A stretch of DNA of 64,000 nt from Candidatus Eiseniibacteriota bacterium (GCA_003235575.1 QJVW01000128.1:34781-98780), one strand, 5' to 3'. Counted from the stretch's first letter, positions 5,775 to 56,752 are shown. Notes: a model not told the origin generated them from the letters alone. Program-made: numbers and translations.

Positions 5775-7537
5775 GAGCCGGATCCCTCCGCCAGGCGCGC
5801 CGTGACCGTGAAGGCGCTGAGCGTCGGCGACACGCGCTCGCAGCGCTCGAGCCGGATTCCATCGAACACGGGCGAGAACGCGAGCGAGCGGAGCAGGTCC
5901 GCCAGCACGCGCTCCGGCGACGCGGTCCGCGTGTTCAGGAGCCCCGACAGTCGGACGGCGCGCGCCTCCGGCACCGCCGGCGCGTCCGTCGAGACCGCGG
6001 AAGGCTCCAGGACCTGGAGCGCCGTCAAGCGCACGTCAGGACCCACGCGATGGCTGAGGTCTCGGAGCGCGGTGGACCAAACCACCTGACTCCCGGTGAG
6101 CCGGGTCAGGAGCCCGCGCAGACGCTCTTCCTCCGCGCGCGCGTTTCGGAACTGCGCCACGGCGTCCCGTTGGGCCGCGTAGCGGTTCAGCTCCGCCTGC
6201 AAGCCGGCCACCCGCGCCCGGGAGCGGGCGACGTCGATCTCCGTCGGCGCGGCGATCGAAAGGAGCAGCATCACGGCCGCCGCCGCCACCGCCGGAGCGG
6301 GTACGGCATCCGCCATCCAGCCGACGGCGCTTCCGACTCCCGTTCCCGCGAGGAAATTGAGCGTCCCACGCCCCACCGACGCCATGGCCGCGCCCGAATC
6401 CGCCATCCCGTCGGCGATGGCGGGCTCGGCCGCGGCGCGTTCTCTCCCCCCCTCCGTATCGGCCACCGTGACCGGCATCTTGAGAACCCCGGCCAGGTAC
6501 GTCGCCAGGTTGGGTGTGCGGCGCCCGTCGCCCAGCAGCACCACTCGGGAGACCGCGTCGCCGAGAAACTGCTCGTTGCAGTAGTCGAAGGAATTCCAGA
6601 GCTCGCGGACGAGCCGCTCGAGCGCGGGCCGTAGCATGATCGAGACCGCGGCCAGCGGCACGTCGTCGACGAATGTCGCCTCCTCGGGTCCGAGGGGAAT
6701 TCCGTGCCGGCGTAGGAGCGCCTCGGCCGCTTCCGGCGATCGCTCGAGCGTTCCCACGCCGGGGACGACGATCTGCCGCAGGGAGGAGGCCAAGGTCGAG
6801 GCTCCGAAGGCGAGATCGCGGGAGAATCGGATGTCCTCGCCCTTCAGCACCAGGATCTGGCTCGCATCCTTGCCGACGTCGAGGTAGGCGACCACCTCCC
6901 CCGGCGAGAGGGCGCCGCGCCGCGCGAGGTCCGCGCGAAGCCCGGCGGCCGCGATGGTGATCGACCAGGGACGGAGACCCGCGGCGGTCAACAGCGAACG
7001 CCACTGGTCCACGCGGCGCCGGGGCGCGATCGCGACGACGACGGGTAGCTCCGCGGGCGGCGCGGCCGCGCCCTCGAGCGTCTCGTGGCGAATCACGGCT
7101 TCGGCGAGCGGGTAGGTGACCTGTTTGCGGCATTCCAATTCCAGCGCCGACGTCAGGTCCGCGGGCCGCAACCGCGGCATCGTCAGCCGCCGAACGATCA
7201 CGTCGGGGCCACCCAGCACGGCGACGGCGGGTCGGCCGCGCGCCCCGAGCTCCGCGACGATGGCGGTGAGCGCCGCCTGCTCCCGCGCCGGCCGCTCGGA
7301 CGAGCCGAGGTCGACGGGAATCGTGCGCGAGGCCGCCACGACGCGCACCGCGGAGCCGTTTCGCGTCACGCGCGTCGCGCGAAGCCGTTGCTCGCTCCCC
7401 TCGACCACGACGAGGTCGCTGGGAGGCATCGCGACGGCGCGCCTCCAGCGCTCGAGGACGCGCGCCACGACGGGTGAAGGGGAGCGTTTTCCCCCCGCCA
7501 CGCGGGACAGCAGATCCTTCAGCGCCGGTCCTTCCAT
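5771..7537 (-). CDS. pilMN: PilM (actin-like ATPase) fused to PilN
   Basis: Start MEGPALK chosen 16 nt downstream of the pilX-NHL stop. The N-terminal ~390 aa are PilM/FtsA-like. This is followed by a TM helix (AVAAAAVMLLLSIAAP), a coiled coil and a PilN-like periplasmic domain. Confidence 0.65.
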   Translation of the reverse strand: MEGPALKDLLSRVAGGKRSPSPVVARVLERWRRAVAMPPSDLVVVEGSEQRLRATRVTRNGSAVRVVAASRTIPVDLGSSERPAREQAALTAIVAELGARGRPAVAVLGGPDVIVRRLTMPRLRPADLTSALELECRKQVTYPLAEAVIRHETLEGAAAPPAELPVVVAIAPRRRVDQWRSLLTAAGLRPWSITIAAAGLRADLARRGALSPGEVVAYLDVGKDASQILVLKGEDIRFSRDLAFGASTLASSLRQIVVPGVGTLERSPEAAEALLRRHGIPLGPEEATFVDDVPLAAVSIMLRPALERLVRELWNSFDYCNEQFLGDAVSRVVLLGDGRRTPNLATYLAGVLKMPVTVADTEGGRERAAAEPAIADGMADSGAAMASVGRGTLNFLAGTGVGSAVGWMADAVPAPAVAAAAVMLLLSIAAPTEIDVARSRARVAGLQAELNRYAAQRDAVAQFRNARAEEERLRGLLTRLTGSQVVWSTALRDLSHRVGPDVRLTALQVLEPSAVSTDAPAVPEARAVRLSGLLNTRTASPERVLADLLRSLAFSPVFDGIRLERCERVSPTLSAFTVTARLAEGSGS

Positions 7538-9580: not shown

Positions 9581-10002
9581 GATCCGTAGTTCGTGAACCA
9601 CGTCGTTAGGGTCACGGGCGGGATGCCCGCGGCCGTGACGGTCACGCTCACGGTGCGATAGGTCACGCCGTCGAAGATCGAGTCGGGCGCCACGGCGATC
9701 GAACGGCTGTACGCGGGAAACGCCGGAATCGGAGTCTCCGGCGGATAGTTCGAGCCCACCAGGTAGGTGAAGCCGCGGGTCGTCGCGCGCCGGTCGGCCG
9801 TGATCTCTTCGAGCTTCGTCTGGGCCAGGTGCGCCGCCACGGAGACGCTTCGCGCGTCCGACGAACGGATGGACGTCGTCGCGAAGAGCATCGCGAGCGG
9901 CAGGACCGCGAGCCCGGCAATGACGATCAGGATCGTGACCTCGATCAGCGTGAAACCCGCCGCCCTGCGCGGCCGTCCCATGCCGCGGGCGCCCCGCCTC
10001 AT
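9577..10002 (-). CDS. Prepilin-type minor pilin, PilV/GspI-like
   Basis: AAGFTLIEVTILIVIAGL prepilin N-terminus. 141 aa. Confidence 0.6.
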   Translation of the reverse strand: MRRGARGMGRPRRAAGFTLIEVTILIVIAGLAVLPLAMLFATTSIRSSDARSVSVAAHLAQTKLEEITADRRATTRGFTYLVGSNYPPETPIPAFPAYSRSIAVAPDSIFDGVTYRTVSVTVTAAGIPPVTLTTWFTNYGS

Positions 10003-10508
10003 CGGACGCGCACCGCGCCGGTTTGCGGCGCGACCTCCACGGTGTCCTGAATTCCCTGGTAGGCGAGCACGACCCGGCCGGCCGTGACCAGTTCCACGCC
10101 CGTGGTGTCTCGGGGAACGCCGTACGAGTCGTAGACGACGGCCGGCGTCGACCCGAACGACGCCGAGGCGATCGACACGCCCCTCGTTTCGGTCAGCGCG
10201 TCGAACGCGACGGCGAGCGTCGCGCCGCGGTTCGCCGGATCGGTGAGGGCGGAATCGGAATGTCCCGCGTAGACGATGTACCGGCCGGCAGCGGCGTCGA
10301 AGCGAACGCCGTGCGGCGTGCGACTTCCGACCGCCCGGTTCTGCGCGTACCGGAGATCCGAGACGACGCGTCGCGCGGCCGCGTCGAGGCGAATCTCGTC
10401 GAGCGACGTCATGCTCGGCCAGGCGGCCCAGGCCAGGATGGCGAGCAGGGTGATCACGATGGAGAGCTCGACCAGCGTGAAGCCCGCGGCGGCAGGGATC
10501 CGGCTCAT
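9999..10508 (-). CDS. Prepilin-type minor pilin, FimT/GspH-like
   Basis: MSRIPAAAGFTLVELSIVITLLAIL, then LDxxARRVVSDLRYAQNRAV, which is typical of GspH/FimT. It is the C-terminal 169 aa of the tracked 737-aa ORF. The ATG overlaps the upstream gene's TGA (ATGA). Confidence 0.6.
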   Translation of the reverse strand: MSRIPAAAGFTLVELSIVITLLAILAWAAWPSMTSLDEIRLDAAARRVVSDLRYAQNRAVGSRTPHGVRFDAAAGRYIVYAGHSDSALTDPANRGATLAVAFDALTETRGVSIASASFGSTPAVVYDSYGVPRDTTGVELVTAGRVVLAYQGIQDTVEVAPQTGAVRVR

Positions 10509-47593: not shown

Positions 47594-49012
47594 ATGAGCA
47601 AGGCGGCTGACGCGGGCGCGGCGCGACCGACCCGCCTGGAAAAGGACTCCCTGGGGACGCTCGAAGTCCCCGCCGACGCCTACTACGGCGTCCAGACCGC
47701 GCGCGCGGTCGCGAACTTCCCCATCAGCGGCGAGCGCCTCCACCGGGAGATGGTGCGCGCCATGGCGCGGATCAAGATCGCCGCGGCGCGCACGCACGGC
47801 GAGCTCGGCGTCCTCGACAAGGCGAAGGCCGATGCCATCATCCGCGCCGGCGAGGAGGTGGCCGCCGGCACGCACGACGCGCACTTCGTCGTCGACGCCT
47901 ACCAGGCCGGCGCGGGCACCTCGTTCCACATGAACGTGAACGAGGTGATCGCGAATCGCGCCTGCGAGATCCTGGGCGGCCAGCGCGGCGATACGAAGCT
48001 CGTCAGCCCCAACGACCACGTGAACATGGCGCAGTCGACGAACGACGTCATCCCGACGGCGATCCGGCTGGCGGCGTACGAACTGTCGGGCCCCGTCGTG
48101 GAGGAGCTCGAAGCGCTGGCCCGCTCGTTCGCGGACCGCGCCGCGGCGTTCCGGACCGTGCTCAAGTCCGGCCGCACGCACCTGCAGGATGCCGTGCCGG
48201 TGACGCTGGGACAGGAGTTCTCCGGGTACCAGGTATGCGCCGAGGGATGGGCGGCGTCGCTGGCCCGCAGCCGCGAGGGACTCTTGGCGCTGGGCCTCGG
48301 CGGCAACGCGGCCGGGACGGGAATCAACGCGCACCCGCAGTACCGCGAGAAGGTCGTCGCCCACCTGGCCACGCTGACCGGCGCCCCCTACCGATCCGCG
48401 CCGAACCTATTCGAGGCGATGCAGAGCATGGCGCCCTTCGTGCGGCTTTCGAACGATTTGCGCGGCTGGTGTCTCGACCTCACGCGCATCGCCAACGACC
48501 TGCGGCTCCTGGCCAGCGGTCCCACGACGGGCTTCAACGAAGTGATCCTCCCGGCCGTGCAGCCGGGGTCTTCGATCATGCCCGGCAAGGTCAACCCGGT
48601 CATCGCCGAGATGACCAACATGGTCTGCTTCCAGATTCTCGGGTACGACACGACCGTGGCCTACGCCGCGCAGGCGGGGCAGCTGGAGTTGAACGTCATG
48701 ATGCCGGTGATCGCGCACAATCTGCACCGTTCGCTCGCCATGTTGGCGCCGACGCTGCGCGTGCTCCGAACGACCTGCGTCGACGGCATCACGGCCAACG
48801 AGGACGTCTGCCGGGGATACTTCGATCGCTCGATCTCGCTGGCGACCGCGCTCAACCCGTACATCGGCTACCTGGCCGCCGCGGAGGTGGCGAAGGAGGC
48901 GGCGAAGACGGGCCGGACGGTCGTGGAGATCGTGCGGGAGCGGAAGCTGCTCACCGAGGAGCAGATCGCGACGGCCTTCTCGGCCGAGACGATGACGGGC
49001 GTCAAGCGGTAG
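47594..49012 (+). CDS. aspA: Aspartate ammonia-lyase (fumarase/aspartase family)
   Basis: 472 aa. GSSIMPGKVNP signature. The N-terminal EVPADAYYGVQT is closer to AspA than to FumC. Confidence 0.7.
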   Translation: MSKAADAGAARPTRLEKDSLGTLEVPADAYYGVQTARAVANFPISGERLHREMVRAMARIKIAAARTHGELGVLDKAKADAIIRAGEEVAAGTHDAHFVVDAYQAGAGTSFHMNVNEVIANRACEILGGQRGDTKLVSPNDHVNMAQSTNDVIPTAIRLAAYELSGPVVEELEALARSFADRAAAFRTVLKSGRTHLQDAVPVTLGQEFSGYQVCAEGWAASLARSREGLLALGLGGNAAGTGINAHPQYREKVVAHLATLTGAPYRSAPNLFEAMQSMAPFVRLSNDLRGWCLDLTRIANDLRLLASGPTTGFNEVILPAVQPGSSIMPGKVNPVIAEMTNMVCFQILGYDTTVAYAAQAGQLELNVMMPVIAHNLHRSLAMLAPTLRVLRTTCVDGITANEDVCRGYFDRSISLATALNPYIGYLAAAEVAKEAAKTGRTVVEIVRERKLLTEEQIATAFSAETMTGVKR

Positions 49013-49091
49013 GTCGCGCGGAGCATCCACGGCGACCGGAGGGTTGTTCGCGTCCTCCCGCGCAGATCGCAGAGAGCCGCGCTACGAAGAC

Positions 49092-50798
49092 CTAGTGATC
49101 GACCCCGGTCCAGTCCTTGGGCTGCGGCTTCGGAACCGCCGGGATGACCGCCCGGACGACGATCAGCACTCCCGCGCCCCGCCCTTCCGGCGCCGCCGTC
49201 ACGGTTTCCGGCGCGCTCAGGACCACGTACGGAAGCGGCGTCAGGAACTCCTCGGTCACGACCTCGATGGCGCACTGCCGCCCCTTGGGCCTCCGCACGA
49301 AGAAGTAGCCGTCGCTGTCGGTGTACACCACGTCCCCGTCCACCCGCACCGCCGCGCCGCGCACGCCGTTCCCCTTCTCGTCCGCGACCAGCCCCTGAAC
49401 CAGATGGTCGGACATCGACGCCCGCGGCGCGCGCGATGCGGCGTCGTACCCGTGATAGAGGTACTGGTTCCCCGCCAGCGTGTACTTCACGGTCCCGTCC
49501 GGAGCCACGTAACTGCCCAGGTTCGCGGTGAAGTTCCCGAAGGCGAGGAGTCGGACGGTCACCATGAGCGCCTGACGGAACGGATCGCCGCTGCCGAAGG
49601 GGACGTACACGGTCTGCCATTCCGCCCCCACGCTGAACCGGCTGGCTAGGTAGGCGCCGCCGAAGGAAACGGTGGTGTTCCCCTCCGTGTGGGTCACGAC
49701 CTGGGAGAGGTCGACGTGCGGCGAGACGTTCTCGCGAAGCGTGGCGACGAGGGTGGTGAATCGTTGACCGCCGCGATCCCGCGCGTGGTGGACGTTGCCG
49801 CCGATCTCGACCGACCTCCCGACATGGCGGCGCATTCCGGCCGAGAGGCCCGTATTGCCCGCTTCGCCGGCGCGGGACGTATAGAACGCGAGCGTCGTGG
49901 TCGCGTCGAGGGCCTTCACGTTCGCCACCACCTGATGCACGCGCCCCCGAAGCGCGGGCGCCCCGTCGGAGGGCGGCTGCAGGAAGTTGTACCGGCCCAG
50001 CTGGAGCACCAAGGGCTTGATCGGACGGATCTTGAGGTCGAGATTCTCCCGCTCCATCTCCGACGCGCTCGCCTGGGGCACCGCGACCCGGCGGAATGCG
50101 TCGGCGGCCGCCGACCAGGCGGCGCGCGCCGTCACCCACGGCCGCTCGAACAGGACGCTCGCCGCGCCGTACGGCTCGCCGTCGCCGCCGCCGAGCGCCA
50201 TCGCGGTGCGCAGATCGCTCCGCGGACGCCATTCGAGCCCGCTGATGACGGTCTGACGGCGCGTGAAGACCGATCGGGTCATGACCCGGACGGTCGGCGA
50301 GACGTCGTGGTCCAGGAAGAGGATGCCCGCGCCCCGTACGCTCCGCGCGCCGAGGAAGAACGGCGAGCCGTACATGGTCGCGGTCGTGCCGCCGATGGCG
50401 CGAAGGCGCGTGTCGCCGACCTCCCGCTCGTAGCCGATGCCGCGGCCGAAGAACGCGTGCGGCGCCTGGAACACGTCGGTCGGAAGCCCGAACGGTACGG
50501 CCTGGTCTCCGACGGAGAGCAGTCCGCCGCGGTACTCCTTGCGCAGCAGTCCGCCGACGTGGAACGTCTCGAGGTCCCCCAGCCCGATCAACCCGTCGAA
50601 CCCCTCGCCGCGGACACGCACCGATCCCCCGGTCGAGTGGTAGAGGCTCGAGGTTCCTCCCTGCACTTGGATCACCTGCGCGCGCGCGCCGCGGGGCGCG
50701 GCGCCGGGAATCAGGACGAGGAGCGCGGCGAACACGACGATGCCCCGGGAACGCCTGGCGGCTCCCTCGGGGCGTTTCGTCGGACGCATGGTCTTCAT
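49092..50798 (-). CDS. Outer-membrane beta-barrel protein with a C-terminal beta-sandwich (CarbopepD_reg/usher-CTD-like) domain; possible reduced fimbrial usher
   Basis: 568 aa with a signal peptide. Amphipathic beta-strand pattern. The C-terminus (GAAVRVDGDVVYTDSDGYFFV) is an Ig-like/CarbopepD_reg-like fold. Last gene of the SCPU-pilin/chaperone operon. Confidence 0.35.
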   Translation of the reverse strand: MKTMRPTKRPEGAARRSRGIVVFAALLVLIPGAAPRGARAQVIQVQGGTSSLYHSTGGSVRVRGEGFDGLIGLGDLETFHVGGLLRKEYRGGLLSVGDQAVPFGLPTDVFQAPHAFFGRGIGYEREVGDTRLRAIGGTTATMYGSPFFLGARSVRGAGILFLDHDVSPTVRVMTRSVFTRRQTVISGLEWRPRSDLRTAMALGGGDGEPYGAASVLFERPWVTARAAWSAAADAFRRVAVPQASASEMERENLDLKIRPIKPLVLQLGRYNFLQPPSDGAPALRGRVHQVVANVKALDATTTLAFYTSRAGEAGNTGLSAGMRRHVGRSVEIGGNVHHARDRGGQRFTTLVATLRENVSPHVDLSQVVTHTEGNTTVSFGGAYLASRFSVGAEWQTVYVPFGSGDPFRQALMVTVRLLAFGNFTANLGSYVAPDGTVKYTLAGNQYLYHGYDAASRAPRASMSDHLVQGLVADEKGNGVRGAAVRVDGDVVYTDSDGYFFVRRPKGRQCAIEVVTEEFLTPLPYVVLSAPETVTAAPEGRGAGVLIVVRAVIPAVPKPQPKDWTGVDH

Positions 50799-50817
50799 CG
50801 GCCTCCTCGGCGCTTGG

Positions 50818-51537
50818 CTACCCCGCGCGCAGCGAATCCTCGATCGAGAATCGGTGGAACTGAATCTTCAGCCGCGACGGCGCCTCCGCGGCGTCCCACG
50901 GAATGAGGACCCGACGCGTGGCGCGCGGCAGGAGGGGGAAGCTCCCGTGCCGGCGCTTGTCCTTGGGGGCGATCGCTTCCGCCCCTTCCACGCGCCCGAG
51001 GCGCGGGCTGATGTTCCGCAGCACGACCTCGACACGGTGCTCCGTCGAATCGTAGACCGCCGCCTCGACCTGCACGTCGTCGCGACCCAGGGACTGCTTC
51101 GGAAGCATGTAGACCGTGTGCGGCAGCTCGATCTGTACCTCGACGCCCTGCCGGCGCGGCATCCCCGCGAACGTGGCGTAGAGCGTGAACCAGGCCGGAA
51201 TCGACTCCGCCGTCGCTTCGAAGAAGATCACGCGCGACTGCTGCGCCGGAATCCGGAAGCTCATCTCGGAGAGCTTCACGCGGATGGATGGATCGAGCGG
51301 CCGGAACACGGGATCGCCGTCCGCGGTGACGTCGAAGCTCTTCGCTTCCAGAATGACGTTCACGGGCAGGAGTTGGTCGTTCGCCAGCTCGAACTTCCCA
51401 TGCACCTTCTTCCCCTGATATTCCACGACGACGGGGCGGACCGTCTGCGCGGCGCTCGGGGGCGCGGCCACGAACGGCGCGACGGCGGCCGTGGCGACGA
51501 GGATGAAACGAAGAGCGATCGTGGAGCGCGACGTCAT
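50818..51537 (-). CDS. Putative PapD-like periplasmic fimbrial chaperone
   Basis: 239 aa with a signal peptide. Two beta-sandwich halves. An N-terminal Arg precedes a hydrophobic strand (TVRPVVVEY). Located between the SCPU pilin genes and the OMP. Confidence 0.4.
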   Translation of the reverse strand: MTSRSTIALRFILVATAAVAPFVAAPPSAAQTVRPVVVEYQGKKVHGKFELANDQLLPVNVILEAKSFDVTADGDPVFRPLDPSIRVKLSEMSFRIPAQQSRVIFFEATAESIPAWFTLYATFAGMPRRQGVEVQIELPHTVYMLPKQSLGRDDVQVEAAVYDSTEHRVEVVLRNISPRLGRVEGAEAIAPKDKRRHGSFPLLPRATRRVLIPWDAAEAPSRLKIQFHRFSIEDSLRAG

Positions 51538-51559
51538 CGTGCGTTGGCCTCCCCTGCGC

Positions 51560-52144
51560 CTAGAGCGCGCGTGCCTGAATCCGGAGGGTTCCGTTGTAGG
51601 TGCCCTGTGGAACCGGCGGACTCGTGGTCAGGTTGATTCGAAGGTCGAGATTGTCGCTTCGGACCTTGGACTTGTTGAGGCCCGTGATGGTCTCCGAGAA
51701 GAGCAGAAGGCTCCCCCCGGCGGGACCGACGGGGTTCGTCTGCGTAAACGGGGCGTAGGCCACCGGGACGCCGGTCAGCATCCGGCCCTCGACGTAGCTC
51801 GAGGGAATGGTGAAGCCGGTGCCCGAAAGCGCCGCGGCGGGCGCGCTGAAATAGCCATAGAGACTGATGGCGCCCGTCTTGCCGGGGTTGACGCTCCAGG
51901 ATGTCTGCACGACGGCGGAGACGCTGCCGTTGGCGATCCCGCCCTGTACCAGGGCGAAGTTGATGCTCGATCCGCTGGGAATGCTGATCGACAGCGACGA
52001 GGGCGTGGTGGCGTTCAACGTGACGCCGGTGAGGCCCGAGAGCAGCTGCCCCCGCCCCGGCGCGGGCAGGAGTAGCAGGACGAGGACGCCCAGCCCGAAG
52101 CCGAGCGCCCTCGTCATCCCTATGGTACGGCGGGTCCCTTCCAT
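51560..52144 (-). CDS. SCPU-domain (spore coat protein U / Csu-type) fimbrial subunit, paralog 1
   Basis: Signal peptide. About 160-aa mature protein ending ...YNGTLRIQARAL. Paralogous to the upstream gene. Confidence 0.5.
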   Translation of the reverse strand: MEGTRRTIGMTRALGFGLGVLVLLLLPAPGRGQLLSGLTGVTLNATTPSSLSISIPSGSSINFALVQGGIANGSVSAVVQTSWSVNPGKTGAISLYGYFSAPAAALSGTGFTIPSSYVEGRMLTGVPVAYAPFTQTNPVGPAGGSLLLFSETITGLNKSKVRSDNLDLRINLTTSPPVPQGTYNGTLRIQARAL

Positions 52145-52166
52145 GGGATCCGGTCTCCTATGTCGG

Positions 52167-52829
52167 TTACAGCGCGCGCGCCTGGATCCGAAGGACGCCC
52201 GTGTACGTGCTGGCGGGTACCGTCGGGCTGGCGGTCAGGTTGATCTGCAGATCCAGATTGTCGCTACGGGTGCTGATCTTGTTCACGCCCGTGACGGCTT
52301 CGGAGAAGAGGAGAAGACTGGCGTTCGCCGGTCCCACCGCGTTCGTCTGCGTGAACGCCGTGTACGTCGCGGGCGTGCCGGTCGTCATCCGTCCCTCGAC
52401 GTACGTCGAGGCGATGTCGTAGACGCCGTCGGTCAAAGCCGCCGTGGCGTCGTCGAAGTAGCCGAACAGCGAAACCGTGCCCGTGAGACCCGGGTTCAGG
52501 TTCCACGCGGTCGTGATCGCCGAGGAAACGTCCCCCGCGGCCGCGGCGCCCTGGGCGAGGGCGAAATTCACCGTCGTTCCGCTGGTGACGGCGACGGTCA
52601 GCGTCTGGGCCATCAAGGCGTTCAGGTTGATGTTCCCGACGTTCGACAGCGTCTGGGCCTGGGCCGAGGTCGCCGACACGGCGAGAACCGCCAGCGCGAC
52701 GGCCGTCCGGCGAACGGCCTTCCGAATGCTCATAGGACTAGCACCTCCCGTAGTACGCCGGACCGGATAGGGGCGGATTCCGTTCCCGGCGGAACCATTC
52801 TCCGATTGGCCCCCGACACCTCGACTCAT
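52167..52829 (-). CDS. SCPU-domain fimbrial subunit, paralog 2
   Basis: The likely start is the internal MSIRKAVRRTAVALAVLAVSATSAQA. Ends ...YTGVLRIQARAL. Strong identity to paralog 1, including the shared VGPA, LLLFSE, RSDNLDL and INLT motifs. Confidence 0.5.
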   Translation of the reverse strand: MSRGVGGQSENGSAGNGIRPYPVRRTTGGASPMSIRKAVRRTAVALAVLAVSATSAQAQTLSNVGNINLNALMAQTLTVAVTSGTTVNFALAQGAAAAGDVSSAITTAWNLNPGLTGTVSLFGYFDDATAALTDGVYDIASTYVEGRMTTGTPATYTAFTQTNAVGPANASLLLFSEAVTGVNKISTRSDNLDLQINLTASPTVPASTYTGVLRIQARAL

Positions 52830-52936
52830 CGGCCGGACCGGCCGCGTTCCTTACCGCTTTCACGGGACGGCCGGGGCGCCAAAACGCAAGAAGGGGCGAC
52901 GTCCGAAGACGCCGCCCCCCAAGCGATTCGCGGGAA

Positions 52937-53527
52937 TTACATGTTGAAGCCGATGCCCGCGCGGAAGTTCACGTAGTTCGTGCTCTCACCCTCGGTCGAG
53001 ACCGTGTGGTAGTTCAGGCCCACGTTCATCTTCGTGGTCGGGGCGACCGGGAAGTTCACGCCCGCGCCGAAGTTGAAGCCGATCTTGGACTGGCTGTCGT
53101 CGACGTTGCCGATGACGGAGTCTTCGACCTTGCCGGAGACGTTGTACCAGCCCGCGCCACCCTGCGCGTAGAAGCTGGTGCCGACGCCCGGGCCGAACGT
53201 GTAGCGGACGGCCGGGTTGACGCGGAACACGCTGCCCGAGACCTTCGTCGTCGAGCTGCTGAGCGCATCGGTGTACTCGGCGGAACCGAGATTGTCGTAC
53301 GACACCTCGGCGCCCCACGAGACGCTCGGCGAGACACCCTTCCAGTACGACGCGCCGAAGCCGACTCCGCCGCCCATGGCGTCGTTGTTCGGCGTGACCT
53401 CGGTGGACGACTTGGCGTAGCCAAGGTTCAGCTCGAGCGACCCGACCGGACCGGCCGACACCGCCGGCGCGAACGCGAAGGCCGCTACGAACAGCGACAC
53501 CAGAACCAGCGTGGAGATGCGCTTCAT
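52937..53527 (-). CDS. Small outer-membrane beta-barrel protein (OmpA-like/OMP_b-brl family)
   Basis: Start MKRISTLVLVSLFVAAFAFA. Alternating-hydrophobic strands ending GIGFNM. Confidence 0.55.
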   Translation of the reverse strand: MKRISTLVLVSLFVAAFAFAPAVSAGPVGSLELNLGYAKSSTEVTPNNDAMGGGVGFGASYWKGVSPSVSWGAEVSYDNLGSAEYTDALSSSTTKVSGSVFRVNPAVRYTFGPGVGTSFYAQGGAGWYNVSGKVEDSVIGNVDDSQSKIGFNFGAGVNFPVAPTTKMNVGLNYHTVSTEGESTNYVNFRAGIGFNM

Positions 53528-53733
53528 TGTGTTTCCCCCTTGTGTTGATGGAACCACCACCCCACCGACCACCACCCATGGCCCTTCGTCGCCGACCCTC
53601 GGCGCGGGGGCCTCTCTGCCACTCGCGGGAAGTCATCGGCATGTGAACGGAAGAACTTGATCGGGAGGATCGCGGCGCTCCGCGCGGCAGCTAACACGTT
53701 TGGCGCCAATGCGGTACGGCCGGACCGTCGGCG

Positions 53734-55035
53734 TCAGGCCTCGGGGATTTCCACCTCGGACCGCGGAACGCGGCCCTCGTGCACCCTTCGAAAGAAGAGC
53801 CAATAGAGGACGGAGGCCGCGACGTAGAGCGCGGCGGCCAGATAGAGCGGGGGCGCGTAGCCGACGCGCTCGATCATGGCGCCGCCGATGTCCGCGCTAA
53901 TGCTCCAGGACAGGAACCAGGAAAGGGAGAGCAGGCTGTTCGTGATCGCGTGATCCCGCTCCGGGACCACCTCCATCGCGAAGTGGGACGCCAGGGGCTG
54001 GTTCATGTTCATCAGCGCCGAGCGGAGGAAGAAGGCGCCGACGACGGCCGGATACCAATGCGACATCGCCAGCACCACCATGAACGGAACCGAGGCGAGC
54101 TGGGTGAGCACCACCCCGCGGACGAGCCCGATGCGGTGGGTGATCGTCGGCCCGAAGACGTTGCTGAGGACCATGAACGCCTGCATCGTCGCGAAGAGGA
54201 TGCCGATCGCCGCCTCGTCCAACCCGAAGCGGTCCCGGAAGTAGAGGTTCAGGAACGGAATGATCAACCCCGCGCCGAGCCCGATCAGCAAGGAGGGAAT
54301 GATCAGCCGCAGGTGCAGCGCCCAGTCGACGGCGGCGAGTTCCCGCATGGCGGTCAGCGCCCGGTCGCGCACCCGGCGACCGGCGCGATCGTCGGGTTCC
54401 TCCGAAACCGGCGGCCGCGCGGTCATGCCGGAAAAGGGGACCGTCGAGAGAAGGTAGAGGCCGCACGCCGCGAAGAGCGAAAAGCGGAGCGCGAGCTGGT
54501 TCGAGTCCGTGACCAGACGAAAGAGGTGCGGCAGGAAACCGCCGAGCGTGGACCCCACGATCGCCGAGAGAAAGAGAATCGTGTAGGAGGCGCTGAAGAG
54601 AAACGGCCTGGACGCGGGCGCCGCCTCGCGCATGATGACCGGCGCGATGGAGAGCCGGAAGACGGTCAGGACGGTCCCGGCGAAGAACGCGACGGTGAGC
54701 AGGAGATCGGGCGCCGTCAGCGTCGATTGCAGCAGGAAGGCCAGGGCGGTCAGCACGCCCGAGACAAGGAGCACCGACCGGGCGGCGACGCGACGCAGCA
54801 CGAGGGCGACCGGAATCGCGGCCATCGCGGCGCCGAGCGACATCTTCGAGAGCACCTGGCCGATCGTGGAATCGGAAACGCCCAGCTCGCGGAGGTAGAG
54901 ATTGAAGAGGAGCGAGAAGACGGACTGCCCCAGCCCGATCAGGAAGATGCCCGCCAGGTAGCGGCGCGGATTCGGGCCGGAGTCCCGAACCTGGCGCAGG
55001 TACTCCGCGAAGATCGACCCGACGACGCGGACCAT
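53734..55035 (-). CDS. MFS transporter
   Basis: 433 aa, 12 TM helices. Last gene of the rSAM-MPE-MFS operon. Confidence 0.75.
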   Translation of the reverse strand: MVRVVGSIFAEYLRQVRDSGPNPRRYLAGIFLIGLGQSVFSLLFNLYLRELGVSDSTIGQVLSKMSLGAAMAAIPVALVLRRVAARSVLLVSGVLTALAFLLQSTLTAPDLLLTVAFFAGTVLTVFRLSIAPVIMREAAPASRPFLFSASYTILFLSAIVGSTLGGFLPHLFRLVTDSNQLALRFSLFAACGLYLLSTVPFSGMTARPPVSEEPDDRAGRRVRDRALTAMRELAAVDWALHLRLIIPSLLIGLGAGLIIPFLNLYFRDRFGLDEAAIGILFATMQAFMVLSNVFGPTITHRIGLVRGVVLTQLASVPFMVVLAMSHWYPAVVGAFFLRSALMNMNQPLASHFAMEVVPERDHAITNSLLSLSWFLSWSISADIGGAMIERVGYAPPLYLAAALYVAASVLYWLFFRRVHEGRVPRSEVEIPEA

Positions 55036-55050: not shown

Positions 55051-55863
55051 CTAGAACCGGCCCCGCGCGCGCTCCCGGGCGGGGAGAATTTCGAGGCACG
55101 TCGTCCACCAGCCGCCGCGGATGGTCTCCACGAACGGCGCCGGCAGCCGCTCCGCCTCCATCTCGGCGGCCATCGCTTCGTGATCGTAGTCGACGGGGAT
55201 GAACGCGGCCTCCTCCGATCCTGGCGCCAGCCACGCGTACCAGACGTTGGGGCGACCATCGTTCGCGGGGCGGCCGATCGATCCGACGTTGATCACGCGG
55301 ACGCCGCCGGGAAGAAGTCGCTGCCAGTGGAGCCCGGTGTGCGTGCAGACGATCGTATCGGCCTCGGCGTCGCGCGCGAGACGAAGCAGGAAGGCGTCGG
55401 AGCACGCCGACTCCCACAGGAATTCGTTGGTCCGGCGGGGAGATCCGTGGCACAGGAGGTAGCGGCGTCCGCCCCGCTCGAACCGCACGCCGTCGGGCAG
55501 CGTGCCCAACCAGGCCCGCTGTTCGTCGGTGGTGTGCCGATCGGTGTACGCGTACGACAGGCGCGCATAGTGGTTGTCGTCGGGATGCGTGTACCCGCAG
55601 CCGCAGTCGTGGAGGCGCTCCGCCAGCGATCGATCGTAGTTCCCCGCGATCGTCGTGACGTCGCGCGCGGCGAGCAGGGGGTAGATCGCTCCCGGATTCG
55701 GGCCGAAGCCGCCCAGGTCGCCCAAGCAGAAGATGCGGGCGGCCCCGCGCCGGCGCGCGTCCTCCAGGCCGGCGCGGAGGGCGCGGTGATTGCTGTACGG
55801 CCCTCCGAGAAGGGCGATGCCCCCCTCGAGTTCGTCGCCCTGAAGCGTCGCGATGCGGGTCAC
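55051..55863 (-). CDS. Calcineurin-like metallophosphoesterase (YfcE/MJ0936-like)
   Basis: Putative GTG start (VTRIATLQGD). Motifs GDLGGFG, GNYD(R), CHGSP, CTHTG. The tracked N-terminal extension overlaps the rSAM gene and is rejected. Confidence 0.65.
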   Translation of the reverse strand: MTRIATLQGDELEGGIALLGGPYSNHRALRAGLEDARRRGAARIFCLGDLGGFGPNPGAIYPLLAARDVTTIAGNYDRSLAERLHDCGCGYTHPDDNHYARLSYAYTDRHTTDEQRAWLGTLPDGVRFERGGRRYLLCHGSPRRTNEFLWESACSDAFLLRLARDAEADTIVCTHTGLHWQRLLPGGVRVINVGSIGRPANDGRPNVWYAWLAPGSEEAAFIPVDYDHEAMAAEMEAERLPAPFVETIRGGWWTTCLEILPARERARGRF

Positions 55864-55870
55864 GGGAGGC

Positions 55871-56752
55871 TCAATTGCGGCACGTGGCGCCCGTCGCCCA
55901 GCAGGTGTGGCAGGCGCCGTGGGCGAGCGGGAAGGGACGGAGCGACGCGCCCAGCGTCTCCGCCATGCGCGCCGACGGGACGTTGATGAGGATCGGGCAG
56001 ACATACACGCCGCGGCTCGTCACCATGCGGCTCGTGGAGCACTGCAGAAGCCAGGGATCGTAGCCGTCCATGTGCGCGGGCGTCAGCAGCTCCTCCGGAG
56101 CGTATCCGCGCGTTCGCGACGCCTCGCGTCCGATCTTGAAGAGAGGGAGTATCTTCACGCGGGGACGCTCGATTCCCCTCGCGCGGAGCAGCGCGTGGAA
56201 CCCCTCGCGCAACCGGCGATCGTCGGCGTCGTCCCACGTCTGCGTGACGGTGATGATCGGGAGAAATCCCCCGTCGCTCAGGTGCTGCGCGCCCCGCAAC
56301 GTGTCGTCGAACGTTCCGGGGCCCCGAATGGGATCGTTTTGCTCGGGCGTGATGCCGTCCAGGCTCACGCGCATCTCCAAGGAGTACCGGCTCGCGTCAC
56401 GGAGCGCGGCGAGCTCGCGCACCAGGGCCGGGGTGAGGAGCGTGGCGTTCGTGAGGACGCTCGTCGGAGCGATCCGAAGCGCGTCATCCAAGATCCCCAC
56501 GAGATCGCGGTGCAGGAAGGGCTCCCCTCCCGTGAAGTAGACGTCGCGCACACCCAGGGACTCCGCCTCGCGTAGGTGGCCGCGCACCGATTCCCGATCC
56601 ATGTAGTCGTGGGCGCGGTTCGTCGGTCCGCACGCGATGAAACAGTGGCGGCAGCGCAAATTGCAGAGCGTCCCGGCCACCTGGAACCAGACGGTGTCGA
56701 GTGCGAGCGCCGGGACGGCGGGTGCTTGGGCCAGCGGAATCGATGAACGCAC
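55871..56752 (-). CDS. Radical SAM enzyme with a C-terminal Cys-rich (twitch/SPASM-like) segment
   Basis: 293 aa. CNLRCRHC (CxxxCxxC), GGEPFL. C-terminal CPILI...HGACHTCWATGATC. Confidence 0.75.
   Translation of the reverse strand: MRSSIPLAQAPAVPALALDTVWFQVAGTLCNLRCRHCFIACGPTNRAHDYMDRESVRGHLREAESLGVRDVYFTGGEPFLHRDLVGILDDALRIAPTSVLTNATLLTPALVRELAALRDASRYSLEMRVSLDGITPEQNDPIRGPGTFDDTLRGAQHLSDGGFLPIITVTQTWDDADDRRLREGFHALLRARGIERPRVKILPLFKIGREASRTRGYAPEELLTPAHMDGYDPWLLQCSTSRMVTSRGVYVCPILINVPSARMAETLGASLRPFPLAHGACHTCWATGATCRN

Follow-up and report, generated by a model that had tools for sequence, protein, structure and literature searches.

The described systems closest to the locus reported here are the chaperone-usher pili, namely the archaic (sigma) pili represented by CsuA/B-A-B-C-D-E of Acinetobacter baumannii and CupE of Pseudomonas aeruginosa, the classical type 1 pili (FimA-I-C-D-F-G-H) and P pili (PapC/PapD), and the alternative (alpha) pili CFA/I (CfaA-B-C-E) and ECP (EcpB). 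Five domains account for the current view of usher function, recruitment being assigned to the N-terminal domain, gating to the plug, and retention of the growing fibre to the two C-terminal domains. Within a stretch of 64,000 nucleotides (nt) from Candidatus Eiseniibacteriota bacterium (GCA_003235575.1 QJVW01000128.1:34781-98780), hereafter referred to as the window, an operon of four genes oriented head-to-tail on the minus strand was analysed. It encodes two fibre-subunit-like proteins (A and B), a chaperone-like protein and an outer-membrane barrel protein (OMP), and the intergenic gaps measure 19–22 nt (Table 1). An earlier note on this DNA had described the region as an archaic (sigma/Csu-type) chaperone-usher-like cluster. 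Based on predicted folds, a subunit motif and gene order, the chaperone-usher-like function assigned there is retained, and the operon probably represents a new and very strongly diverged fibre system of chaperone-usher-like type that features a minimal usher analogue. Membership in the archaic Csu/SCPU clade, the other half of that description, is not supported by the profiles defining this clade.

In comparison to the archaic pili, the operon shows the same order of subunit gene(s), chaperone gene and outer-membrane protein gene with an optional extra subunit gene thereafter, as is also the case for the seven archaic reference clusters, originating from plasmids, that were used for profile-profile comparison with hhalign. 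Furthermore, both share the subunit motif AGTYT[GD]T at a fixed spacing, an alternating segment at the subunit N-terminus and a chaperone arginine that may be equivalent to Arg174 of CsuC. Archaic pili possess a two-domain tip adhesin, whereas no gene of this kind is present in the window, and the archaic systems considered here belong to Proteobacteria, whereas the genes of the present system are carried by Eisenbacteria, Acidobacteriota and Gemmatimonadota. Classical pili follow the same overall logic, namely immunoglobulin (Ig)-like subunits exported via Sec, a chaperone of the tandem-Ig type and a large barrel equipped with a periplasmic beta-sandwich, all of which are predicted for the present operon; the OMP has its best fold matches in FimD and PapC, and FimC and PapD are among those of the chaperone. 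However, sequence similarity to the classical proteins was not detectable (hhalign P 0.36–0.77). For the alternative pili, CfaA and EcpB rank among the top chaperone folds (E 5e-9 to 6e-8), whereas a sequence relationship was not found, the operon order is another one and the usher is of full size.

To describe the distribution of the module, one peptide pattern of the OMP was used, which yielded 84 stretches of species-representative genomes, 80 of which were kept as loci. These originate mostly from Terriglobales and Acidobacteriaceae and include 12 loci from 11 metagenome-assembled genomes (MAGs) of Eisenbacteria as well as one locus (L061) of the cultured carrier Occallatibacter savannae AB23. 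Gemmatimonadales and Binatia MAGs appeared among the protein matches, and Candidatus Eisenbacteria MAGs contain the closest relatives as well as a locus with full synteny. Synteny was counted for the 69 loci in which 2.2 kb or more precede the OMP gene (Eisenbacteria, Acidobacteriota and Gemmatimonadales). The chaperone gene is located directly upstream of the OMP gene in 68–69 of these loci, and one to four subunit genes precede the OMP gene in all of them (two in 46 loci), showing that the order of subunit gene(s), chaperone gene and OMP gene, previously likened to that of archaic clusters, is indeed a conserved feature. An added subunit-like gene follows the OMP gene in 9 of 64 loci. Conservation of this kind also bears on the idea that the operon is a degenerate remnant or an artefact of spurious open reading frames (ORFs) in GC-rich DNA. 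The window is of even composition (~69% GC) and contains long overlapping ORFs in all frames, as this idea would suggest, but each operon protein has more than 100 homologues (33–80% identity), conserved motifs are present, the folds predicted by AlphaFold2 (AF2) are confident, and the operon order is conserved across phyla. For practical purposes, the conservation and fold data refute this explanation, which we consider extremely improbable.

Among the loci, variations of the gene content were also observed. A divergent first subunit-like gene, whose product lacks the central region (E ~1e-8 to the family profile), is located at 5797–6360 of locus L001, and a further subunit-like gene follows the OMP gene in this locus (9638–10216), at the position occupied by the tip adhesin gene CsuE in archaic operons. 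Divergent first and post-OMP subunit-like genes occur in Acidobacteriaceae and Terracidiphilus loci. Moreover, single complete copies of the module were found in MAGs labelled as Omnitrophota (L015) and Chlamydiota (L072), i.e., in phyla far from the main carriers; these copies could be the result of mis-binning or horizontal transfer.

The AF2 model of the chaperone-like protein, based on an alignment of 46 sequences, consists of two all-beta domains and reached a predicted local distance difference test score (pLDDT) of 91.8 and a predicted template modelling score of 0.79. In a Foldseek search of the PDB, the top 21 matches of this model were all chaperones of chaperone-usher systems (E 4e-9 to 7.5e-8, TM-scores 0.45–0.62), with CsuC in first place (E 4e-9) followed by CfaA, YadV, Caf1M, FimC, DraB and EcpB. 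As judged from the model, the fold is that of a chaperone-usher-type chaperone, and remote homology to these proteins is plausible. In hhalign comparisons, the family profile aligned with the seven archaic chaperones at P=0.0023 and a probability of 12.6%, the 171 colinear columns extending across the two domains. This P-value is comparable with that of the positive control (archaic chaperones versus FimC, P=0.0009), whereas reversed and cross-family controls gave values of 0.07–0.57. In this comparison, TVRPV is paired with lIwPi in strand A1, the F1-region motif is matched by SFRIP..QSR and the G1 donor strand by VEVQIELPHTVY, and N.G...aR has its counterpart in N175..G-R182. Hallmark residues of CsuC are Pro59, Arg89 of domain D1, and Arg174 and Tyr196 of domain D2, the latter three representing the carboxylate anchor (PMC4654587); in the low-confidence alignment, the invariant R182 of the present family corresponds to the anchor residue Arg174. 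Moreover, the conserved basic residues R34 (strand A1) and H140 (strand G1) appear to occupy positions roughly like those of the anchor in classical chaperones.

The fibre-subunit-like proteins A and B, which had been recognized beforehand as paralogous secreted proteins ending in YxGxLRIQARAL, share 56% identity over 165 aa (E 1e-61) and belong to a family of 840 clusters at 50% identity. When the family profile was compared to SCPU subunits, a match with P=7e-5 restricted to the last 27 columns was obtained (reversed control 0.19), in which PAGTYTGTL..QA.A of the subunit family is paired with aaGTYTDTv.vTl of SCPU. The distance of the motif tyrosine from the C-terminus is exactly 11 aa for 124 of the 135 family members, and that of the equivalent tyrosine is exactly 10 aa for 15 of the 17 SCPU subunits used as references. 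In addition to this offset by one residue, the archaic subunits end with an aromatic residue, whereas the present family ends with A-L/Q. A fixed C-terminal length is what anchoring of the carboxylate in the chaperone cleft would require. In the comparison with the single sequence of CsuA/B (hhalign E 0.25), the 10-residue C-terminal motif alone was aligned. Taken together, the colinear profile match of the chaperone and the C-terminal motif at fixed spacing suggest links to the archaic systems in particular, although weaker ones.

Upstream of the first core strand, the subunits carry a conserved segment of alternating hydrophobic residues, V-x-L-x-A, at mature positions ~9–13. It occupies the position of the donor strand VDVKLNI of the archaic CsuA/B and is a candidate donor strand of the subunits. 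Two proteins encoded outside the window, P0348 and P0383, combine two subunit domains in a natural tandem fusion, in which domain 1 lacks the alternating N-terminal segment and the segment of domain 2 follows ~13 residues after the C-terminus of domain 1. This layout fits a cis donor strand, i.e., a self-complemented subunit, and would suit a subunit of the tip type, which does not have to supply a donor strand. The protein P0451 (366 aa) was also considered as a two-domain tip adhesin and was rejected; it contains an internal signal peptide and more likely represents a fused gene call.

For the OMP, the AF2 model (pLDDT 80.4) features approximately 26 consecutive strands between residues 40 and 450, followed by a low-confidence linker and a beta-sandwich (residues 465–550) that has a weak match to CarboxypepD_reg (E 4e-4). 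The barrel and its C-terminal beta-sandwich, like the two-domain chaperone encoded upstream, thus agree with the reading of the earlier note. Since the predicted signal peptide (ending GARA, followed by QVIQV) leads straight to the first barrel strand, which begins at residue 40, the OMP lacks an N-terminal domain. A plug, which the earlier note had proposed to look for, is likewise absent from the model, since all inter-strand connections within residues 40–450 comprise at most 18 residues, whereas ~80 aa are needed for this domain. Moreover, one C-terminal beta-sandwich is present, compared to two (CTD1 and CTD2) in ushers. Absence of all three domains accounts for the length of the protein, which at 568 aa is 190–310 aa shorter than real ushers (those of the seven archaic reference clusters comprise 755–832 aa, and FimD 878 aa) and in line with a previous estimate of ~250 aa relative to classical ushers. 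The top 10 Foldseek matches of the OMP model are structures of FimD and PapC, with E-values from 2e-11 for full-length ushers to 5e-7, whereas porins and TonB-dependent receptors scored 8e-7 or worse. Two loops of the OMP are highly conserved, namely residues 103–114 (LPTDVF, between strands 5 and 6) and 232–249, and are candidates for gating elements.

Homologues of the OMP with additional domains were also encountered. In P0156 and P0160, the beta-sandwich is followed by an extra peptidoglycan-binding domain (SPOR or OmpA), and longer OMP ORFs with an added C-terminal domain are present in loci L019, L022, L023 and L084. Since these peptidoglycan-binding domains are appended at the C-terminus, this end of the protein should be periplasmic, as in ushers. 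As deduced from their sequences, the appended domains imply a tether to the cell wall.

Several results weigh against the interpretation as a chaperone-usher-like system, and the first of these concerns the profile searches. Pfam and NCBIfam scans of the four operon proteins gave no SCPU, PapD, Usher or PapC match; when the protein encoded upstream of the operon (see below) was included, the sole matches among the five proteins were OMP_b-brl for this small barrel and the weak CarboxypepD_reg match at the OMP C-terminus. Neither the profiles by which the archaic assignment was to be checked (PF05229, PF00345, PF02753 and PF00577) nor PF13953 and PF13954 thus matched the operon proteins, an outcome that the earlier note had named as one half of its refuting condition. 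For proteins A and B, neither SCPU (PF05229) nor any other Pfam or NCBIfam family was obtained, SCPU appeared once and below threshold (E 0.13) when 36 subunit relatives were scanned singly, and it was not among the families listed for 135 further members. PapD_N (PF00345) and PapD_C (PF02753) did not match the chaperone of the window or 46 members of its family even at E<=10, and Usher (PF00577), PapC_N (PF13954), PapC_C (PF13953) and the NCBIfam models did not match the OMP. For all three families, phmmer and hmmsearch with profiles against the PDB returned chance matches only, with one partial exception, an OMP C-terminal domain match resembling the N-terminal extension of SusC (E 0.014). 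In order to control the profiles, CsuA/B, CsuC and CsuD of Acinetobacter and archaic components of the alphaproteobacterium Novosphingobium were scanned, and these matched SCPU, PapD_N, Usher and PapC_C at 1e-8 to 1e-38. The control subunits matched SCPU at 4e-22 and 1e-29, CsuC and the Novosphingobium chaperone matched PapD_N at ~1e-20, and CsuD and the Novosphingobium usher matched both Usher and PapC_C. Since the models detect genuine archaic components but none here, the operon is not an ordinary archaic chaperone-usher operon. Literature searches for this gene family or system did not retrieve a description.

The residues of the chaperone cleft represent a second point of this kind. Pro59 of CsuC, which kinks strand D1, was described as the 'only invariant residue of the superfamily' (PMC4654587). 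At the corresponding site of the present family (E91/M92), no proline is found and methionine occurs in 91% of the members, the alignment probability being 12.6% as given above; a strand break at this site is still present in the model (E85-89 / E93-96). In the same low-confidence alignment, the non-classical Arg89 corresponds to E107 (glutamate in 83% of the family) and Tyr196 to P201/F200. Based on these weakly aligned equivalences, the chemistry of the cleft appears to be different from that of CsuC.

These findings also bear on the assumption that the operon belongs, by true homology, to the archaic (sigma) clade, has diverged beyond profile detection and encodes an usher that has secondarily lost the N-terminal domain, the plug and the second C-terminal domain. 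Identical gene order, CsuC as the best fold match of the chaperone, and a subunit C-terminal motif whose sequence and spacing nearly match those of SCPU subunits are consistent with this assumption, and there are reports of archaic systems from many different phyla (PMC9452303). However, SCPU, PapD_N, Usher and PapC_C recognize archaic components of alpha- and gammaproteobacteria and nothing here, Arg89 and Tyr196, which are specific for archaic and alternative chaperones, are not conserved, and the OMP is far more distant from archaic ushers than archaic ushers are from classical ones (P=0.09 versus 6e-26). Membership in the archaic clade is thus considered unlikely.

The OMP contributes the remaining points against a chaperone-usher-like system. 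DSSP assigned 26 strand elements to residues 40–450 of the AF2 model, so that the predicted number of strands may differ from the 24 of ushers. Barrel-only usher structures fitted the model no better than porins (5e-7 versus 8e-7), and the ranking of ushers in the fold search therefore rests largely on the combined architecture of barrel and C-terminal sandwich; the TM-scores of the best matches, which are ushers, are low (0.36–0.43). In hhalign, the OMP profile showed no relationship to the seven archaic ushers (P=0.09; barrel alone 0.097), whereas the control, archaic ushers versus FimD, gave P=5.6e-26, and the C-terminal domain alone compared with usher C-terminal domains gave P=0.32, which is not better than the reversed control. 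Results of this type would also be expected if the barrel were a co-transcribed porin-like or export channel and the Ig-like proteins were periplasmic or surface coat or binding proteins that do not polymerize by donor-strand exchange: barrel-only ushers fit no better than Occ porins or TonB-dependent receptors, the OMP has neither plug nor N-terminal domain, and sequence homology to ushers was not found. Several features speak against such a channel, namely the near-universal linkage of subunit, chaperone and barrel genes across phyla, the specific chaperone-usher-type fold of the chaperone, the fixed-length subunit C-terminus with its chaperone-usher-like motif, the natural tandem fusions with their cis donor-strand layout, and the resemblance of the periplasmic beta-sandwich of the OMP to the C-terminal domains of ushers. 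This alternative is also judged to be improbable, to about the same degree as archaic-clade membership.

For the preferred interpretation as a divergent chaperone-usher-like system, which would build a surface fibre or coat from the predicted Ig-like subunits, the following course of assembly is proposed. Both subunits would be exported via Sec, as suggested by their signal peptides. In the periplasm, the chaperone would cap each subunit by lending its strand G1 (...VEVQIELPHTVYM...) and would hold the fixed-length subunit C-terminus in its interdomain cleft, a role to which fold, motif and conservation point. Complexes of chaperone and subunit may then bind to the 568-aa barrel at its single periplasmic beta-sandwich, where the V-x-L-x-A segment of the incoming subunit would displace the chaperone strand by donor-strand exchange, and the growing polymer would leave the cell through the large barrel. 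Since the barrel is devoid of an N-terminal domain, a plug and a second C-terminal domain, recruitment and gating must differ from those of ushers; speculatively, gating might be accomplished by the conserved inward loops or by the C-terminal sandwich itself.

As a more tentative proposal, which we rate clearly above either of the two preceding alternatives and somewhat short of even probability, the operon may represent a separate and previously unrecognized type of machinery that builds fibres by donor-strand exchange and stands apart from the six known chaperone-usher clades. In this type, a barrel with ~26 strands and one periplasmic beta-sandwich, lacking both plug and N-terminal domain, would perform the whole task of an usher. 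Such a system could be a minimal ancestral form of the pathway, or a different barrel could have been recruited independently to work with a PapD-like chaperone. The module is widespread in Acidobacteriota, Eisenbacteria and Gemmatimonadota. If a conserved natural system with the hallmarks of chaperone and subunits operates with a barrel and one periplasmic domain, it would show which parts of the usher are dispensable and would bear on the origin of the chaperone-usher pathway. Furthermore, the operon would provide a candidate adhesion or biofilm fibre for dominant and poorly studied soil phyla; none of its four protein families is covered by Pfam or NCBIfam, and the system escapes all current annotation models. 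The cultured carrier O. savannae AB23 makes the idea directly testable.

Coordinates of the operon genes and of the features located upstream of them are summarized in Table 1. For gene A, the ORF list extends to 52829; the start at the ATG at 52733 was adopted, since it is preceded by the Shine-Dalgarno sequence GGGAGG and since public gene calls hold the resulting 188-aa form. All four operon proteins have signal-peptide-like N-termini.

Table 1. Features of the chaperone-usher-like operon and its upstream neighbourhood (positions refer to the window).
Feature	Position	Strand	Description
Outer-membrane barrel (OMP), minimal usher-like candidate	49092-50798	-	568 aa; one C-terminal beta-sandwich
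Periplasmic two-Ig-domain chaperone-like protein	50818-51537	-	239 aa; signal peptide; mature N-terminus QTVRP...
Fibre-subunit-like protein B	51560-52144	-	194 aa; paralogue of A; C-terminus ...GTYNGTLRIQARAL
Fibre-subunit-like protein A	52167-52733	-	188 aa; Sec signal peptide ending AQA, followed by Q; C-terminus ...STYTGVLRIQARAL
Terminator-like hairpin	52891-52920	-	13-bp GC-rich stem, then T-run CTTGCGTTTT
Small OmpA/Opacity-like outer-membrane barrel	52937-53527	-	PF13505 OMP_b-brl, E 2e-16

The predicted mature N-terminus is glutamine in all four operon proteins, and this residue is found at the same place in 100% of the chaperone relatives and 89% of the subunit relatives. Formation of pyroglutamate is one possible reason for this shared feature.

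A separate small outer-membrane barrel just upstream of the operon, also listed in the earlier note, was confirmed as a neighbour that is not part of the module. The protein is of the 8-strand, OmpA/Opacity-like type. Its gene is followed by a GC-rich hairpin and a T-run, which end the gene and thus mark it as a separate transcription unit. It adjoins the operon in the syntenic Eisenbacteria loci L005 and L006 and is missing from those loci of Acidobacteriota and Gemmatimonadales that were examined in full (L001–L004). Inclusion of the small barrel in the system was rejected because of its own terminator and its absence outside the Eisenbacteria loci examined.

An Rfam scan of positions 48900–53900 for riboswitches or leaders gave nothing credible, and a sigma-70 promoter was not found in a corresponding promoter scan. 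Genes flanking the region encode housekeeping functions, namely 2-oxoacid dehydrogenase E1/E2, a class II fumarase/aspartase, a major facilitator superfamily transporter and a radical S-adenosylmethionine (SAM) protein. Elsewhere in the window, two minus-strand ORFs encoding metallophosphoesterase-like (55051–56004) and radical-SAM-like (55871–56752) proteins overlap by ~134 nt; most likely, the start of the downstream gene is over-extended in this GC-rich sequence.

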